Notes: generated from the sequence alone by a model not told the origin. A stretch of DNA of 63,776 nt, filler included, from 10 parts of 10 records of this genome joined end to end with filler, not necessarily neighbours in it, one strand, 5' to 3'; shown: positions 33,837 to 39,936, numbered from the whole stretch's first letter. Numbers and translations: made by a program.

Positions 33837-34059
33837 AATCTTGCCTCCATATCTTTTAAAGGGCCTGTCTTACGGTCAGGCATCATATTCAATCCAAACG
33901 GCTTTTTCAACACATGGTTTCTTCCCTGACAGGAATCCGGGATCGGCTGTTTTAAAAATTTCAGAACAAAATGCCAAGGGCCACGATATTAAGGATGGGG
34001 GTTGAATTCAAGGGGCAGGATCATTTTAAACCGGGAAAACCGGACCCGGCAAAGAAAGG

Positions 34060-34567
34060 TTAAGGCCGCATATGGCAGGCCACAAGATGACCTTTTCCCG
34101 CGGCCTTAAGCCCGGGCCGGGCTGTCTTGCAGATGTCTTTGGCCTCGGGGCATCTGGGATGAAAGGTGCATCCCGACGGCGGATTAATGGGGCTGGGCAC
34201 GTCCCCCTTAAGCATGATGCGCTCTTTTGCCCTGCCCGGAACCGCCTGGGGTACGGCGGAAAGAAGGGCCCGGCTGTAGGGATGAAGTGCATTGGCGTAA
34301 AAATCCTTTTTATCGGCTGTTTCCACAAGCCGGCCCAGGTACATCACCGCCACCCTGTCGCAGATATACTCCACAACCGACAAATCGTGGGAGATAAATA
34401 TATAGGTGAGTCCGAACCGGGTCCGCAGTTCCTGGAGCAGATTGATCACCTGGGCCTGGATGGAAACGTCCAGGGCGGAAACCGGCTCGTCCGCCAGGAT
34501 CAGCCTGGGCTGAAGGGCCAGGGCCCGGGCGATGACGATCCGCTGGCGCTGCCCCCCTGAGAATTCA
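34060..34567 (-). CDS. Oligopeptide/dipeptide ABC transporter ATP-binding subunit (OppF/DppF-like), 5' partial
   Basis: [54 protein letters not shown]. Confidence 0.93.
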
Positions 34568-34667
34568 NNNNNNNNNNNNNNNNNNNNNNNNNNNNNNNNN
34601 NNNNNNNNNNNTTAATTAATTAANNNNNNNNNNNNNNNNNNNNNNNNNNNNNNNNNNNNNNNNNNNN
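34568..34667. other. Artificial contig linker
   Basis: N-run, TTAATTAATTAA, N-run. Confidence 0.99.
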
Positions 34668-34676
34668 GGAGAAATA

Positions 34677-35105
34677 GTGAAAAGCGAAATAGAGGTTTTT
34701 CGGGATTTTGTGCGCAAAAAGGGACTTCGCAATACGGTAGAGCGAGAGACCATCATCACCGAAATCCTTGCCAGCCGCGACCACTTCGACGTAGACGAAC
34801 TTTACCTGAGGCTGCGCAGGAAACACAAAAAAATTTCCAAGCCCTCCATCTACCGTTTGATCCCCTACCTTATAGAGGCCGGCATGATTCAGGAGGCCTA
34901 TTTCGAGGACGGCCATCAGCATTACGAGAACATCTACGGGCAAAAACACCACTGTCACTTGCGCTGCATGGTGTGCGGCAAGATCATCGAATTCGAGTAT
35001 GGCGGACTGAAACGGCTGGAGAACAAGCTCGCCGACCAACACGGATTCACCATCGAGGGCCACAAAGTCGAAATTTCGGGTACCTGCCCGGATTGTCAAT
35101 CCTGA
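34677..35105 (+). CDS. fur: Fur family metal-dependent transcriptional repressor
   Basis: HFDVDELY, ISKPSIYRLI, HHCHLRCMVCGKIIEF, GTCPDC. Confidence 0.92.
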   Translation: MKSEIEVFRDFVRKKGLRNTVERETIITEILASRDHFDVDELYLRLRRKHKKISKPSIYRLIPYLIEAGMIQEAYFEDGHQHYENIYGQKHHCHLRCMVCGKIIEFEYGGLKRLENKLADQHGFTIEGHKVEISGTCPDCQS

Positions 35106-35137
35106 TTGTTCTTTTATGGGTAGGCACTAAATAATGG

Positions 35138-35201
35138 TTGACAGCCGACTTCCATTGATACTATTAGCAAAATCTCATTGTGTTAGAAAGACAAACCTAA
35201 A
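35138..35201 (+). promoter_or_regulatory. Putative sigma70 promoter and metalloregulator operator upstream of the TonB receptor
   Basis: TTGACA at 35138; TGATACTAT downstream; GTTAGAAAG shared with the second promoter; imperfect TTAG...CTAA dyad. Confidence 0.5.
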
Positions 35202-35220
35202 CTTCGTCAAACCATGAAGA

Positions 35221-35303
35221 GTCTTGCGACGTGCGGCTGAGTAATAGCGCGCATGGCAGTGAAGGCGCGGCAGGGGGATTTCTCTTGTTGCGCTTTTTTA
35301 TTG
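35221..35303 (+). ncRNA. Candidate structured cis-regulatory leader, copy A
   Basis: Sequence and fold conserved with copy B (37816-37915); alternative hairpin followed by T6 just upstream of the GGAGGAG RBS. Confidence 0.5.
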
Positions 35304-35327
35304 ATTTGTAGGATTGCGGAGGAGCCA

Positions 35328-37493
35328 ATGGGAAGAAGAAAAATGCCTGTCTTGTTCGGCCTTGGCATGGTGTTGCTGGCAGGCCTGTTCGTGCAAGGGC
35401 TGCCGTGGGCGTCATGCGTTGCCGCTCAGACCGAAACAGCGGAGCAATCGGAGACGGTCGAGGCGGAGGAAAAGGAGGCACCCGCCCCACGACCGGATAC
35501 GGTCACGGCGCGTAAACAACAGGAATTTGCTCGGGACGTGCCCGTGAGCATGACGGTGCTCGGCAACCAGGACATTGGAGACCGGCAGATCGACTCAGTG
35601 GTTGAGATTGCCGATTTCGTTCCCAACATGATGATTTTCGAGAACGGCCTGGCCGGGTTCAATACGCCGTCCATGCGCGGCATTCACGCCGATCCAGCCA
35701 CCCGTTCGGTTTCATCCGCTTTGTTTGTGGACGGCGTGCCGATTCTTACCCCTATCGGATATACGGCCGGCCTGGTCGACGTCGACCGTATCGAGATCCT
35801 GCGCGGTCCCTTGGGGGCCTTGTATGGCCGGAACACCGAGGCCGGCGTTATTAACATCGTCAGCCGGCAATACGCAAACGACTTCGGCGGCGCCTTGTCC
35901 GCAAGGATCGGCAGGCGGTTGTCCTCCGAATCAGACGATCGAAATACCGGCGGGTTCGATGCCCATGTCGGCGGCCCGATACAGAAGGACCGGCTCTTTT
36001 TCGGTATCGCCGGCCAATACGACCGCAAGGATGGATTTATCGGAAACACACTCACCGGCGATGCGGAAAACGATCGGGAGCACCGCTACGGCCAGGGATC
36101 GCTGCGCTGGGTGCCGACCGATGACCTCGAGGTCCGGTTGTCGGCTTCCCTGCTTCAGCGTGAGGACGGCGGCCCGGGCATGTCCCTGACCGAGGCCGGT
36201 GCCGCCGACCTGGGACTTCCCGCCCCGCAGGACCGGCGGGTCTCTTCCAATGCCGAGGCTTATAACGAGGGAAGATCGGAATTGGAATCACTGTCTATCG
36301 TTTACGATATCAACGATTCCCTGAAACTGACCTCCGTCAGCGCCCGAAGGGTATGCCGGGATGACACCCTGATCGACCTGGACTTCAGCGACCAGACATT
36401 GATCCATGAGAAGAAGGACAATCGCTACCGGACCCTTTCCCAGGAGTTGCGCCTCGATTACGCGGCCGGGGGGCTGCAGTGGCTGGTCGGCCTTGACTAC
36501 GACGACGATCACTCCGATATCGAATACCAGATCATTTCCGATTTGCCGGACACGGCTTCCGTAGAAAGTCGCAATCTCAAGGGCCGGGGATACGCGGCCT
36601 TCGCCTCGTTCAGCTACCATTTGGGGCGCCGGCTTTACCTGGACGGCGGCTTGCGCTGGGAGAAACGCGAAATGGAACACGAAGACAATATCGAACGCGC
36701 CCAGTGGGAGGATTCCTGGGGGGCGTTCGCGCCATCGCTTACCATCAAGCACGACTACAACCGGCGCATCATGGCCTATCTGAGTGCCGCGAAAGGGTAC
36801 CGGCCCGGCGGGTTTAACGTCTATGCCACCGACGCCGATCATCGAGTCTATGACGAGGAGGCCTTGTGGGCGTTTGAATACGGTATCAAAAGCACCTTTT
36901 TGGACGATCGCCTGTTGATCGATGGTGCGGTTTTCTATCAGCAGATCGACGACATGCAGGTCAGCGAGGCCTTATCGGCGACCACCACCTATCTGACCAA
37001 CGCCGCCGAGGCATCCGGCATGGGCGGTGAACTGGAGGTCACGGCCAGGCTGGGCGGCGGCTTCAGCCTGGTGGCCGGCGGCGGCTACAATGCCATCGAG
37101 TTCGACGAATTCGAGGATGCCCTGGATGACTACCGGGGCAACACGCCGCCCTTTGCCCCGGAATATACCTATCATGCCGGCGCGCAATACCGGCATCCGG
37201 TGGGGGCCTATGTCCGATTGGACCTGATCGGTTATGGCAAGATATACCTGGACCGGGCCAATGATTACGAGCGGGGTGCCTACGAGCTGGTCAACGCCAA
37301 AATCGGGTATGCGACCGGCAAGTTCGATTTCTGCCTGTACGGTAAAAACATCTTCGATACGGAATACAACGCCGACGGCTATGCCGGGGGCGCCTATACC
37401 ATCTACAGCGATCCGGGGGAGGCGGGGTTGCAGGTGACCTACCGGTTTGATGATTCGGGTGTGCAAAAGGACAACAAGGGCTTTGTGATTTGA
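35328..37493 (+). CDS. TonB-dependent outer-membrane receptor
   Basis: Signal peptide; DTVTARK; plug motif DVDRIEILRGPLGALYGRNTEAGVINIVS; AKGYRPGGFN; YGKNIFD; ...VTYRF (true stop probably near 37450). Confidence 0.93.
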   Translation: MGRRKMPVLFGLGMVLLAGLFVQGLPWASCVAAQTETAEQSETVEAEEKEAPAPRPDTVTARKQQEFARDVPVSMTVLGNQDIGDRQIDSVVEIADFVPNMMIFENGLAGFNTPSMRGIHADPATRSVSSALFVDGVPILTPIGYTAGLVDVDRIEILRGPLGALYGRNTEAGVINIVSRQYANDFGGALSARIGRRLSSESDDRNTGGFDAHVGGPIQKDRLFFGIAGQYDRKDGFIGNTLTGDAENDREHRYGQGSLRWVPTDDLEVRLSASLLQREDGGPGMSLTEAGAADLGLPAPQDRRVSSNAEAYNEGRSELESLSIVYDINDSLKLTSVSARRVCRDDTLIDLDFSDQTLIHEKKDNRYRTLSQELRLDYAAGGLQWLVGLDYDDDHSDIEYQIISDLPDTASVESRNLKGRGYAAFASFSYHLGRRLYLDGGLRWEKREMEHEDNIERAQWEDSWGAFAPSLTIKHDYNRRIMAYLSAAKGYRPGGFNVYATDADHRVYDEEALWAFEYGIKSTFLDDRLLIDGAVFYQQIDDMQVSEALSATTTYLTNAAEASGMGGELEVTARLGGGFSLVAGGGYNAIEFDEFEDALDDYRGNTPPFAPEYTYHAGAQYRHPVGAYVRLDLIGYGKIYLDRANDYERGAYELVNAKIGYATGKFDFCLYGKNIFDTEYNADGYAGGAYTIYSDPGEAGLQVTYRFDDSGVQKDNKGFVI

Positions 37494-37643
37494 TCGATCT
37501 CAATGGTGGGCAATGCCCACTCAACTGCTTTCAAACTCGAAATTCGATGATCGAGGCGGCGAGGGTGACACATGGGAGGGCGGTGCGAGCAAGTTCAAGC
37601 GGCACGGCAAAACCCCTTCACGGCAATCACGGCCATTCCCTGT

Positions 37644-37673
37644 AAGGCAGGGGCGAAGACGCCCCTGCCTTTT
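37644..37673 (+). terminator. Intrinsic terminator or REP-like hairpin after the TonB receptor
   Basis: Perfect 12-bp stem AAGGCAGGGGCG-AAGA-CGCCCCTGCCTT followed by TT. Confidence 0.7.
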
Positions 37674-37748
37674 CAATCGCACAACCACTATATTTCTTCG
37701 CTGTAATTGACAGCCATCCAACTGCCCATGCCAGTTTGCAAAAAACGG

Positions 37749-37808
37749 TTGACAGACGACGGTATTAAAGTTAGAAAGCTCTATCAAATAAAGAATACTA
37801 TATTATAA
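37749..37808 (+). promoter_or_regulatory. Putative sigma70 promoter upstream of the DUF2325 gene
   Basis: TTGACA-17 nt-TAGAAA; GGTTGACAG.CGAC and GTTAGAAAG shared with the promoter at 35138. Confidence 0.55.
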
Positions 37809-37815
37809 AAAGGAT

Positions 37816-37915
37816 GTCTTACGGCCGTCGGATGAATTAATCGCGATTGGCAGTGAAGGCGCTTGGGTACCGGTGAGACGGTTGTCCGATGCGCCTTCGC
37901 CGTTTGGCAGGGAGG
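37816..37915 (+). ncRNA. Candidate structured cis-regulatory leader, copy B
   Basis: Identical 15-mer TGGCAGTGAAGGCGC and conserved stem with a compensatory change relative to copy A; competing hairpins involve the GGAGG RBS. Confidence 0.5.
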
Positions 37916-37923
37916 AAAAAGCC

Positions 37924-39166
37924 ATGTTAATGGAAGCCCAAAAGGATTTAGTCGAAGTCAAGGACGCGGAGAAAGAGAGCTGCGAACCCTGTCGCCGTTT
38001 AGCCATCTGGGATGTCAATCAATGTTTCAAATGCCCCGTGATCGGTATGTGTATTACCCTGGACGAGCAAAAACGCCTGCTGAGGAAGATGGGACTGCTG
38101 GGAAAAAAGGACAGCCCCTTTGAAATGCACGAGATCATGGTGGCCGCGACGGATAACGAAAACCGGCTATCACGAAGAATCGACAATCTGCTTGAACGGA
38201 AATACGGCAAGCAGGCCAGCGTGCTGCTTCAACTCGATGACGAGGCCTTCCTGGCCAGTTTCAAGAGGGCGATGGAGGCCGGGGAAGCCGCGACGGTGTT
38301 GTGGGCAACGGCGGTCAACCCCGATCTATCCACGGCCTGTCGCCGGGCGATTTTCGGTGATATTCACATGAGCATGCATTGGAACGGCGAACGGTTGATG
38401 CAACTGAAACGCAAGATTAGCCGGCAACAACATGATTTGGCCCGGATACAGGGGCGCTACGACGAATCTGTCCGGCGACAGAGAGAAATGAAAAAAGAAT
38501 TCAACGCATGCATGCGTGAAAAAAGTGTTAGAAAACACCCTTGCTGCCGAGCAAAGAGAGAAACTTAGGTCGCAACAGGCCATGATCGGCCTGGATTGCC
38601 CAGGGTGCGCGGACGATCCGGAACAGAAGAACCAGAATTCGCAGCGACTCATTGATTCCCTCAGCCAAGAATTGGCCCAAGCCAAGCGCGAAATCATTGC
38701 CCTCAAGGAAGAAAATTGCAATTTGTCATCGCAGGTCAGTCAACAAAGCGAAATGAGCAGACATTTCCGGGAAGAGGCCCGCGCCATTGTGGCTGAAATG
38801 ACATCGTTGAACCGCTGCGATGCCAATTGCCCATCGTTCGATCTGTGTCAGAAACGAGTGTTGATTGTCGGCGGGGTTACGCGTATGGAAACGCTTTACC
38901 GTGATTTGATTGAAAGCAGCAACGGTATTTTCGAGTACCATGACGGCTATTTCAAGAAAGGCGCCAAGAGCCTTGAATCCAGCCTGAAGCGGGCGGACAT
39001 GGTGCTCTGTCCGGTAAACTGTAACAGCCATGCGGCTTGCTCGATTGTCAAGAATCTGGGCAAGAAACACCATAAAACCGTGCACATACTGGCCAATTCG
39101 AGCCTGACCACCGTATCCCAGGTGATTCGGGGAGGCCCGGACGGCGATACATGCACGCTCAATTGA
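37924..39166 (+). CDS. DUF2325 domain protein, long form (Cys-containing N-domain, coiled coil, DUF2325); frameshift in A-run near 38520
   Basis: RLAIWDVNQCFKCPVIGMC, FGDIHMSMH, coiled coil, then KRVLIVGG, YHDG, ADMVLCPVNCNSHAAC; GGAGG RBS. Confidence 0.85.
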
Positions 39167-39213
39167 CTTCAGGTTTGCCGAACAGGGGACAATTGCCCCA
39201 TACAGCGATTGAT

Positions 39214-39510
39214 ATGAAAGTAGAAAATACACATGTCCGTGTCGAAATCGCCGCGACGACGCTTCTTCACCTTCTTGCTGGCGGTCAAGTTTGTGCGGCT
39301 GATTTCCGTTGTTTGGATTGCGAATCAAAACAATGCCTCTGGCGCCTTTGCATTCAAAGCTGTGCAACTCCTTTGCAAAAACGCATTGGCCGTGCTCAGG
39401 CGCCGGAATCGATTTGCCTGCTCGGGAAACGGTGCCATTTGACAGAAAGCGTTGCTCTACTCACGACAGCCAGTTGCACAAGCAAATTCGATAATCGTGG
39501 GTCTCGATGA
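39214..39510 (+). CDS. Small Cys-rich hypothetical protein
   Basis: VCAADFRCLDCESKQCLWRLCIQSC motif; co-directional immediately after DUF2325. Confidence 0.7.
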   Translation: MKVENTHVRVEIAATTLLHLLAGGQVCAADFRCLDCESKQCLWRLCIQSCATPLQKRIGRAQAPESICLLGKRCHLTESVALLTTASCTSKFDNRGSR

Positions 39511-39624
39511 ATAGCGGTTTCGAAAAAAAACTTAACAGTTGCCGATCTGTCGCATTCTCCACGCGACTTTAGATCACCGGGCGGTAGTGGTGGGTGTCCT
39601 TCCCTTCTCTTTCCTTGAGTCGCC

Positions 39625-39685
39625 CGGTGATCTATACCTTAAAGAACTCGTCCGTTATATTCACCTGAATCCATTAAGAGCCGGT
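39625..39685 (+). mobile_element. Fragment of a REP-associated tyrosine transposase (RAYT, IS200-like Y1)
   Basis: DLYLKELVRYIHLNPLRAG motif; upstream sequence is not transposase-like; runs into the contig end. Confidence 0.7.
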
Positions 39686-39785
39686 NNNNNNNNNNNNNNN
39701 NNNNNNNNNNNNNNNNNNNNNNNNNNNNNTTAATTAATTAANNNNNNNNNNNNNNNNNNNNNNNNNNNNNNNNNNNNNNNNNNNN
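39686..39785. other. Artificial contig linker
   Basis: N-run, TTAATTAATTAA, N-run. Confidence 0.99.
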
Positions 39786-39936
39786 GTTTAGCAGTGTCTA
39801 TCAAAGTCTGGGAATTCCATCTCCGTTCCTTGGTGACAACTCTTTCCATCCGTGTTGCCGGACCAAGTTGACTGTTCTTGTGTGTCGGGAGAGTTTCATG
39901 CACTCGTTGAGAGTGCCATTGTGTCCCATGATGTAG

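Follow-up and report, generated by a model that had tools for sequence, protein, structure and literature searches.

A strand-specific leader RNA family with two mutually exclusive folds and a candidate terminator switch upstream of iron-acquisition operons

In Bacillus subtilis, hutP and pyrR are regulator genes that stand first in their operons and are immediately followed by an attenuator; more attenuators of this type occur elsewhere. Bacterial iron uptake is usually described as controlled by Fur or DtxR at the level of transcription initiation, with small RNAs (sRNAs) acting on iron-using proteins. To our knowledge, no dedicated terminator switch acts on iron-uptake genes, and a search of full-text literature yielded neither such a switch nor any description of an iron-uptake leader element of this kind. 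Here we consider two leaders, A and B, upstream of a TonB-dependent receptor gene and a DUF2325-family gene, in a stretch of DNA of 63,776 bases (the window). Both contain copies of one motif and are members of a conserved, strand-specific family of structured leader RNAs with two mutually exclusive folds. We consider it very likely (probability about 0.9) that the motif is a structured leader acting in cis, in which an antiterminator and a terminator form a switch in front of iron-acquisition operons.

The closest described systems are hut and pyr. As in these operons, a putative regulator gene, here encoding a small protein of ~97 amino acids (aa), is followed intercistronically by the attenuator, and by analogy this protein is a candidate for binding the RNA and choosing the fold. 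In contrast to those systems, there is no HutP or PyrR domain, and neither Pfam nor NCBIfam contains a family that matches the small protein. HutP and PyrR recognize UAG repeats and the PyrR binding loop, respectively, whereas the RNA here consists of a single hairpin containing a purine loop. In the case of PyrR, binding favours termination; binding of the hairpin here would prevent it, and the signal would relate to iron. Another analogy is provided by the ribonucleic antiterminator (RAT) targets of BglG, SacY and LicT and by the targets of ANTAR proteins. There too, a short hairpin with internal loops and a conserved stem sequence overlaps the 5' arm of a terminator, and stabilization of the hairpin leads to read-through, as proposed here. 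However, no CAT/PRD or ANTAR domain is encoded in the scanned neighbourhood, the sequence and loop geometry are unrelated, and these regulons concern the use of sugars or nitrogen rather than iron uptake. The switching logic is of a known kind; what is new, as far as checked, is the family of RNAs, the regulon it precedes and the candidate protein partner. The main texts of three motif surveys (PMC5737381, PMC8632094, PMC11109978) contain no related passage on feo, iron, TonB or siderophores; their supplements might list the motif.

The leader RNA family and its two folds

The elements of the two leaders that form the alternative structures are as follows.

35217..35268, + strand: motif copy A (covariance model R1, 32.6 bits, E 9.2e-07; fold by RNAfold)
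35221-35227 with 35259-35266, + strand: stem P1 of copy A, with bulged G 35261 and the variable hairpin P2 inside
35261..35299, + strand: intrinsic terminator of leader A, 17 pairs (hairpin 35261-35297) followed by T6; the 5' arm re-uses GAAGGCGC of P1
37812..37862, + strand: motif copy B (R1, 47.7 bits, E 2.9e-11; fold by RNAfold)
37816-37822 with 37853-37860, + strand: stem P1 of copy B, with bulged G 37855
37853..37900, + strand: terminator-like hairpin of leader B (RNAfold), re-using GUGAAGGCGC, with a broken U-run CCUUCGCCGUUUGG

The R1 scores of both copies are partly high by construction, since both are rows of the 56-row alignment from which the model was built. An earlier reading of the same DNA, made without database searches (the sequence-only reading), had drawn attention to the pair. 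The leader sequences it quoted are present as given at 35221-35268 (A) and 37816-37862 (B), and the 15-mer that it found identical, TGGCAGTGAAGGCGC, occurs exactly twice in the 63,776 bases (35254 and 37848), both times on the + strand. Four further sites match it with 3 mismatches each; the resulting 6 matches against 2.14 expected are at chance level (5 of 100 shuffled sequences reach 6). A candidate third copy at 33866, GTCTTACGG, was rejected, as it belongs to a different contig and lacks the 3' half. The two leaders have a second block in common, GGTTGACAGNCGAC, 68-84 nt upstream of each copy.

RNAfold reproduces the hairpin that had been drawn by hand for both copies, as well as the alternative downstream hairpin re-using GAAGGCGC in both leaders. 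The complete leaders are more stable than shuffled sequences (z -3.53 and -3.66; none of 200 shuffles is as good), and so is the hairpin of copy B taken alone (z -2.50; 2/200). The reverse strands are unremarkable in the same test (z +0.81 and -0.92).

No Rfam 15 family matches the motif, either in the window at the gathering threshold or within 34000-39000 at E <=10, nor is there a match at E <=5 in the five loci holding the best-scoring copies. This agrees with the suggestion that the leaders do not belong to the cobalamin, molybdenum cofactor (Moco), NiCo, yybP-ykoY or fluoride riboswitches. Relatives were collected using the N-terminal part of the downstream DUF2325-family gene (1077 representatives at E <=0.001); an alignment of 40 members of this family led to 80 loci from species genomes. 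The closest of these are from Desulfosarcina, with 66-69% identity. A pattern scan of the 80 loci found the motif 59 times, always on the strand of the gene, and a MAFFT alignment of 56 copies yielded the covariance model R1. R1 produced 63 matches in the window and the 80 loci, all on the + strand, that is, the strand of the gene. After genome searches there were 117 matches, 110 of them distinct, in Desulfosarcina and other Desulfobacterales, Syntrophales and Desulfatiglandales genomes. Five genomes contain 3, 3, 11, 8 and 1 matches, respectively. R1 matches were found in at least 6 of the 151 genomes of a phylum sample (a seventh genome, G037, was recovered by a laxer, small search) and in at least 27 of the 151 genomes of an order sample; both counts are lower bounds, as large searches score few candidates.

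The 56 copies of the MAFFT alignment have the same layout: a near-invariant 5' part (G)UCUUACG(G/A), a variable middle hairpin, and a near-invariant 3' part (N)A-GUG-AAGGCG. The outer parts form P1, a near-invariant stem of 7 base pairs, GUCUUAC / GU-G-AAGGC, with one bulged G. P1 is separated by a 2x2 purine loop, G(G/A) / NA, from the variable and strongly covarying stem P2. Among the 110 copies, U9 is conserved in 109, C11 in 109, G12 in 108, A74 in 109, G75 in 110, and the bulged G in 109. A further bulged G in the upper stem, said to be the same in the two window copies, is present in only a part of the family in the MAFFT alignment and is not a family-wide feature.

In the 56-row alignment 93.6% of the cells are paired, with 84 double changes against 26.3 +/- 6.9 in shuffled alignments (0/500 reach the observed value), and all slid registers pair at 56% or less. 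In the 117-row alignment 93.4% of the cells are paired, with 182 double-change cells against 49.5 +/- 14.5 (0/500), and slid registers pair at 58% or less. Compensatory changes occur in all six pairs of P2 and in four of the seven pairs of P1. Thus both homologues and covariation exist outside the genome in which the motif had first been noticed, and the copies, located on the strand of the downstream gene, are not dispersed in random orientation.

The switch is suggested by the position of the terminator. A run of at least four Ts follows within 85 nt in 104 pattern instances. The total of 116 instances found by the regular expression (regex) includes about 10 false ones inside the feoA coding sequence (GTGAGCCTGCG...), which have no T-run and are not R1 matches. 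Thus the expression platform is uniform, with a plain intrinsic terminator in 104 of about 106 true instances. In 88 of the 116 instances, Ts follow a 3' arm able to pair with 8 or more of the nine bases of AAGGYRnnn. Covariation is seen between the base after GGCG and its counterpart in this arm: C-G in 26 cases, U-A in 25 and U-G in 33. Since AAGGCG is both the 3' strand of P1 and the 5' base of the terminator, P1 and the terminator compete and the two folds are mutually exclusive.

Over the stretch that begins with P1 and ends with the T-run, the mean minimum free energy (MFE) of the 104 instances is -33.2 kcal/mol, against -27.3 kcal/mol with P1 forced. The terminator fold is favoured by 5.8 kcal/mol on average (standard deviation 2.9, range 0.1-18.3). 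In the MFE structure AAGGYR is paired downstream in 89 of the 104 instances, while P1 is present in 6. In the hairpin taken alone, P1 is present in the MFE structure of 86 of the 104. Thus the two conformers, whose energies the sequence-only reading had wished to see compared, are within about 6 kcal/mol, the terminator fold being the lower one. In leader A the values are -37.1 and -32.4 kcal/mol with P1 forced, and the terminator-like end noted before is indeed a hairpin (35261-35297) followed by T6.

The layout of an aptamer with an expression platform, which the same reading had proposed, holds insofar as there are exclusive folds, one of which is a terminator. The proposed sequestering of the Shine-Dalgarno box is not conserved: pairing of the 3' arm with it is seen in copy B only, with P1 forced, and is weak in copy A and not conserved in relatives.

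Several results weigh against this account of the leaders. The 58-nt hairpin of copy A alone is no better than shuffled sequences (z -0.19; 81/200 as good). The T-run of copy B is interrupted (CCTTCGCCGTTTGG), while the closest relative of leader B, L106 of Desulfosarcina variabilis, has an intact T6 run; without a U-run, copy B may act differently or not at all. It may, for instance, act on translation with the opposite sign, or decay along with its frameshifted gene. The 117-row alignment was fitted to model R1. Finally, compensatory changes in P1 are rare (five cases of A-U in place of G-C at the closing pair; one or two events in each of three other pairs): because P1 is so conserved, its pairing is supported by few such events.

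Candidate promoters, candidate operator boxes and the regulon

The longest downstream open reading frame (ORF) is co-oriented with the motif in 92 of the 99 evaluable copies. A Shine-Dalgarno box and a start codon are found within 450 nt in 95 of the 99, at a median distance of 60 nt from the T-run to the start codon. Downstream ORFs were clustered and named by Pfam or NCBIfam; the counts of copies are approximate, as some places were counted twice.

DUF2325-family gene: 36 copies
FeoA: 8 copies
TonB-dependent receptors: 5 copies
FeoB: 5 copies
DUF3450 (TonB system): 4 copies
ChuW/HutW heme-degrading radical SAM enzyme: 3 copies (500 bits, cut-off 400)
Porin-like (Porin_O_P-like cluster): 3 copies
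STAS-like ~120-aa protein: 3 copies
Peripla_BP_2 binding protein: 2 copies
AraC-type regulators: 2 copies
OprB porin, DUF4198, FecR-like, MoxR-like ATPase: 1 copy each
Short or doubtful ORFs: several

Judging by these assignments, the genes behind the motif copies are an iron-acquisition regulon, which fits the metal-linked signal guessed earlier from gene context. Rodionov et al. 2004 (PMC545781) list the same kinds of genes in the Fur regulons of delta-proteobacteria. Among them is genY, a two-domain gene of unknown function; our guess is that it corresponds to this DUF2325 family.

The following genes and candidate promoter and operator elements were found around the two leaders.

34677..35105, + strand: fur-family regulator gene (Pfam FUR PF01475, E 7.4e-29), directly upstream of leader A
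35138..35143, + strand: -35-like TTGACA of leader A, within the common block GGTTGACAGNCGAC
35162-35167, + strand: -10-like TATTAG of leader A, 18-nt spacer from TTGACA
35164..35177, no strand assigned: weak match to the palindromic box in leader A, 2 mismatches, candidate operator
35318-35324, + strand: Shine-Dalgarno box GGAGGAG of the TonB-dependent receptor gene
35328..37493, + strand: TonB-dependent receptor gene behind leader A (Pfam Plug and TonB_dep_Rec_b-barrel)
37749..37754, + strand: -35-like TTGACA of leader B (position -68 relative to the motif)
37771..37784, no strand assigned: palindromic box TTAGAAAGCTCTAT in leader B, 1 mismatch, candidate operator of an iron-responsive repressor
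37910-37915, + strand: Shine-Dalgarno box GGGAGG of the DUF2325-family gene
37924..39166, + strand: DUF2325-family gene behind leader B, with a Cys/His-rich N-domain, a coiled coil and DUF2325, split in two frames

There are two classes of motif copies. The own-promoter class, to which both window copies belong, numbers 68 (false feoA regex matches included). TTGAC is present upstream in 52 of the 68, mostly at -68 to -74. A palindromic 14-bp box, (T/A)TAGA-N4-TCTA(A/T), occurs at -28 or -46/-47 from the motif; with at most 2 mismatches it is found in 43 of the 68 own-promoter copies, compared with 80 of 1997 background windows. This box is probably the operator of a local repressor of the Fur or DtxR family. 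It differs from the FUR box given for Geobacter and Desulfovibrio in a table of PMC545781, which is of the TGAAAATCATTTTCA type. TTGACA and TATTAG form a candidate promoter of leader A; a consensus promoter scan of this leader lists no promoter. Ahead of iron-uptake operons the spacing between the box and the TTGACA promoter is fixed; a further example is L002 1762-1777. In genomes that lack the RNA motif, the box likewise precedes DUF2325-family genes.

The second class consists of 36 intercistronic copies, a third of the total, that have no promoter of their own. The stop codon of the small protein gene lies 11-13 nt, in some cases more, before them, and the DUF2325-family gene follows them. 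In this class only, the bases before P1 are conserved as (C)AGGGAUG / AGGAAUG (e.g. L016 2766-2772), recalling a GGA-type protein site or a sequence similar to a start site. This flank, (A)GGGAUGU / AGGAAUGU, resembles the consensus obtained for CsrA by systematic evolution of ligands by exponential enrichment (SELEX); it is not conserved in the own-promoter copies.

In the window, the context of fur, TonB-dependent receptor and DUF2325 genes, recognized earlier from the sequence, is borne out by Pfam matches. Only 28 nt separate T6 from the ATG of the TonB-dependent receptor gene in leader A, and thus this gene can be expressed only through read-through. The window itself consists of several contigs strung together with N/TTAATTAATTAA linkers (a concatenated draft or a metagenome-assembled genome). 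N runs with a central TTAATTAATTAA, which contains stops in all six frames, mark joins at 34569-34668 and 39687-39786, and both motif copies lie on one 5.0-kb contig, 34669-39686. Therefore genes outside 34669-39686 may be neither neighbours of the two leaders nor even from the same organism. The DUF2325-family gene is split into two overlapping frames (38516-38568), with the break at a run of As at about 38519-38525. The second frame has 71% identity to residues 201-414 of an intact homologue of 414 aa, and the relatives are unsplit proteins of 346-415 aa. The split at a homopolymer is either an assembly error or a genuine frameshift.

Candidate factors acting on the hairpin

In the proposed mechanism, the nascent RNA would first fold into the conserved P1/P2 hairpin, with P1 as the antiterminator. 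The 3' strand of P1, AAGGCG, would otherwise form the base of the downstream terminator hairpin followed by the U-run. Termination would be the default, and a factor holding P1 shut would allow read-through into the uptake genes. This factor may be the ~97-aa, predicted all-helical protein with its basic C-terminus, EESRKAFKSKRLEALRKKL. The repressor box beside the TTGACA promoter would gate initiation separately. Under iron limitation, the promoters would open, the antiterminator protein would accumulate or become active, and the whole regulon would be read through.

We tentatively place protein-dependent antitermination by the small protein first because of the phyletic link between the two, the layout similar to that of hutP and pyrR, the simple hairpin with an invariant stem, and the sign of regulation. 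As stabilization of P1 would turn the uptake genes on, it suits a protein that is made or active under iron shortage, not an Fe2+ ligand. An antiterminator hairpin overlapping an intrinsic terminator is indeed what protein-dependent antitermination would involve. The link can be seen in the order sample of 151 genomes.

Small ~97-aa protein (single-sequence search): 25 genomes, 23 with the motif
Small ~97-aa protein (after profile search): 26 genomes, 24 with the motif
DUF2325-family gene: 36 genomes, 19 with the motif
STAS-like protein: 64 genomes, 21 with the motif

Thus, with no correction for ancestry, the small protein is present in 24 of the 27 motif genomes, and the motif in 24 of the 26 genomes with the small protein. 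In the phylum sample the small-protein profile matches 7 genomes, 6 of which have the motif, the seventh being a weak partial match; conversely, 6 of the 7 motif genomes have the small protein. At 12 loci the small protein gene and the DUF2325-family gene abut, stop codon to start codon, and no motif separates them. In all five tested genomes whose small protein gene has no adjacent motif, motif copies occur elsewhere, and thus the co-occurrence does not merely reflect adjacency. The small protein is predicted to form four helices (predicted local distance difference test score, pLDDT, 82). Its basic C-terminal stretch EESRKAFKSKRLEALRKKL is near-invariant, and F80, K81, S82, L88 and R89 are invariant.

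The other neighbours were considered as partners of the RNA and rejected. The DUF2325-family protein co-occurs with the motif weakly (19 of the 27 motif genomes, 19 of the 36 genomes with the gene); upon reading, seven genomes with this gene but without a small-protein or R1 match have no motif before it, and have box-like palindromes instead. The STAS-like ~120-aa protein is too widespread (64/151 genomes). Pfam and NCBIfam scans of the proteins encoded near the motif show no CAT/PRD, ANTAR, HutP or PyrR domains. The DUF2325-family protein has invariant W, C, H and H residues in its N-domain and a cluster of Cys residues before the DUF2325 domain. Together with the small protein gene its gene forms a conserved, often translationally coupled pair (L002 2482-4170 and the 12 loci).

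The case for the small protein has its weak sides. The co-occurrence is confounded by shared ancestry and by the conserved gene cassette. Three genomes, G177, G207 (9 copies) and G209, have the motif and no small-protein match, while G204 and G233 have the small protein and no motif at E <=0.1; these five assemblies may be incomplete. The window encodes no member of the small-protein family. The protein belongs to no Pfam or NCBIfam family, has no fold match at E below 1 and contains no known RNA-binding domain; its look-alikes in the Atlas are only 'hypothetical'. His and Cys residues are common in it but not conserved, and thus it may not sense iron itself.

A bolder version, which we regard as possible but doubtful, is that the small protein binds the single conserved hairpin before every iron-uptake operon, disabling the terminators according to iron status. 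It would then be a bacterial counterpart of the iron-responsive element (IRE) and its iron regulatory protein (IRP), an aconitase. Iron would be sensed either by the small protein itself or via a partner, the Cys/His-rich DUF2325-family protein. As in the IRE/IRP system, a hairpin in iron-uptake messages would be bound by a protein when iron is short; however, the output of the IRE is translation or mRNA decay, whereas here it would be termination of transcription. If this is true, a second, RNA-level layer exists above control by Fur or DtxR. The motif itself is not an IRE. It lacks both the CAGUGN apical hexaloop and the bulged C five pairs below it; its apical loop varies in sequence and length, and CAGUG is seen in some copies only, within the stem.

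The main alternative to the small protein, which we also hold to be less probable than not, is a true riboswitch: the hairpin would be an aptamer for a small molecule or an ion, whose binding would lock P1, block the terminator and switch the genes on. Indeed, this is a covarying structured domain in the leader of regulated genes, with mutually exclusive folds. The architecture is that of ON riboswitches with terminators, such as the adenine (pbuE) and guanosine tetraphosphate (ppGpp) riboswitches, which also reside in 5' leaders, have the 3' strand of P1 in the terminator, conformers of close energy and regulons with many copies. The unpaired or bulged bases (G12, A74 and the bulged G) are near-invariant, the conformers differ by about 6 kcal/mol, there are several copies per genome within one regulon, including one tandem pair (L005), and no known RNA-binding protein domain is encoded nearby. 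On the other hand, ON logic has the wrong sign for Fe2+, heme or any other signal of iron sufficiency, so that the ligand would have to signal the need for iron. In known metal riboswitches an excess of the metal turns on exporters, whereas it is importers that follow this motif. The NiCo/czcD and yybP-ykoY metal aptamers are far more complex. A plain hairpin of 45 nt with a 2x2 purine loop and an invariant stem is more typical of protein sites such as RAT. The expression platforms are uniform, with terminators almost everywhere, and the tight co-occurrence with the small protein is left unexplained. Judged by this co-occurrence, a protein-dependent antiterminator is no less favoured than a riboswitch. 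Comparison by eye with the consensus sequences of the K-turn and the sarcin-ricin (bulged-G) module led to rejection of both, as the opposite strand lacks the necessary GA or GAA.

If the RNA acts alone, this would be the first class of riboswitches turning on iron importers upon a signal of iron need; whichever the effector, either a new family of RNA-binding regulators or a new riboswitch class would be involved. The RNA of 52 nt is small enough for direct biochemistry and structural work. Two protein families of no known function would also gain a testable role: that of the small helical protein and, less directly, the DUF2325/'genY' type, whose presence in Fur regulons has been noted for a long time.

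It is unlikely that there is no effector at all and the leader is an attenuator with fixed or kinetically tuned read-through (depending on the speed of RNA polymerase, NusA/NusG or nucleoside triphosphates), or else an element protecting the 5' end of the transcript while the promoter box does all the control by iron. A well-placed repressor box is already present in the own-promoter copies, and the terminator and P1 folds are close in energy, as this explanation would have it. However, a fixed attenuator does not need an invariant 7-bp stem, a purine loop and a bulged G retained across orders, and the existence of intercistronic copies, like the co-occurrence with a single protein family, speaks for a trans-acting factor.

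Even less probable is a family of trans-acting sRNAs similar to RyhB or PrrF, in which the terminated transcript of ~90-130 nt would be the product, the free 5' strand GUCUUACGG the seed, and read-through into neighbouring genes secondary. Promoters with operators, a variable hairpin and a strong terminator with a long U-tail are typical of sRNAs; the multiple copies with invariant single-stranded stretches and the tandem pair also speak for this reading. However, the copies are not free-standing transcription units independent of their neighbours. A co-oriented gene follows in 92 of 99 cases, at a median of 60 nt, which leaves no space for a second promoter (in leader A the gap is the 28 nt mentioned above), and the 36 intercistronic copies have no promoter of their own. 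The RNA may also have a dual role.

That the motif is a feature of DNA only, a duplicated promoter/operator block or a repeat similar to repetitive extragenic palindromes or miniature inverted-repeat transposable elements (REP/MITE) with no function in RNA, is suggested by the promoter-like sequence common to the window copies and by the identical 15-mer, but can practically be dismissed, as compensatory changes keep the hairpin on one strand only, every copy is on the strand of the downstream gene and coupled to a terminator, and from order to order the motif is retained but its flanks are not; for a REP/MITE-like dispersed repeat, copies would occur in both orientations and independently of genes, which they do not.

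Arrangement of individual loci

The motif is common in sulfate reducers and hydrocarbon degraders of anoxic sediments, an ecologically important group, and reaches up to 11 copies per genome; the regulon can be delineated from sequence alone. In D. widdelii the elements follow in this order: a promoter with the box, a DtxR-family repressor gene, the small protein gene, a motif copy, the DUF2325-family gene, a STAS-like gene, a second promoter with the box, a second motif copy, and feoA with feoB. A terminator-like hairpin followed by T7 was found between the DtxR-family gene and the small protein gene at L002 2405-2447. The small protein gene may in turn need read-through, or a promoter that escaped notice, for its own expression.

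The tandem copies at L005 (4984-5033 and 5087-5137), each with a terminator of its own, are located before a HutW-like radical SAM gene. In G004, contig C4 contains seven motif copies on the same strand within ~40 kb (2068140-2108792; L082, L087, L101, L094, L098, L096, L090). This region is an iron-acquisition island in which each operon seemingly has its own copy of the motif.

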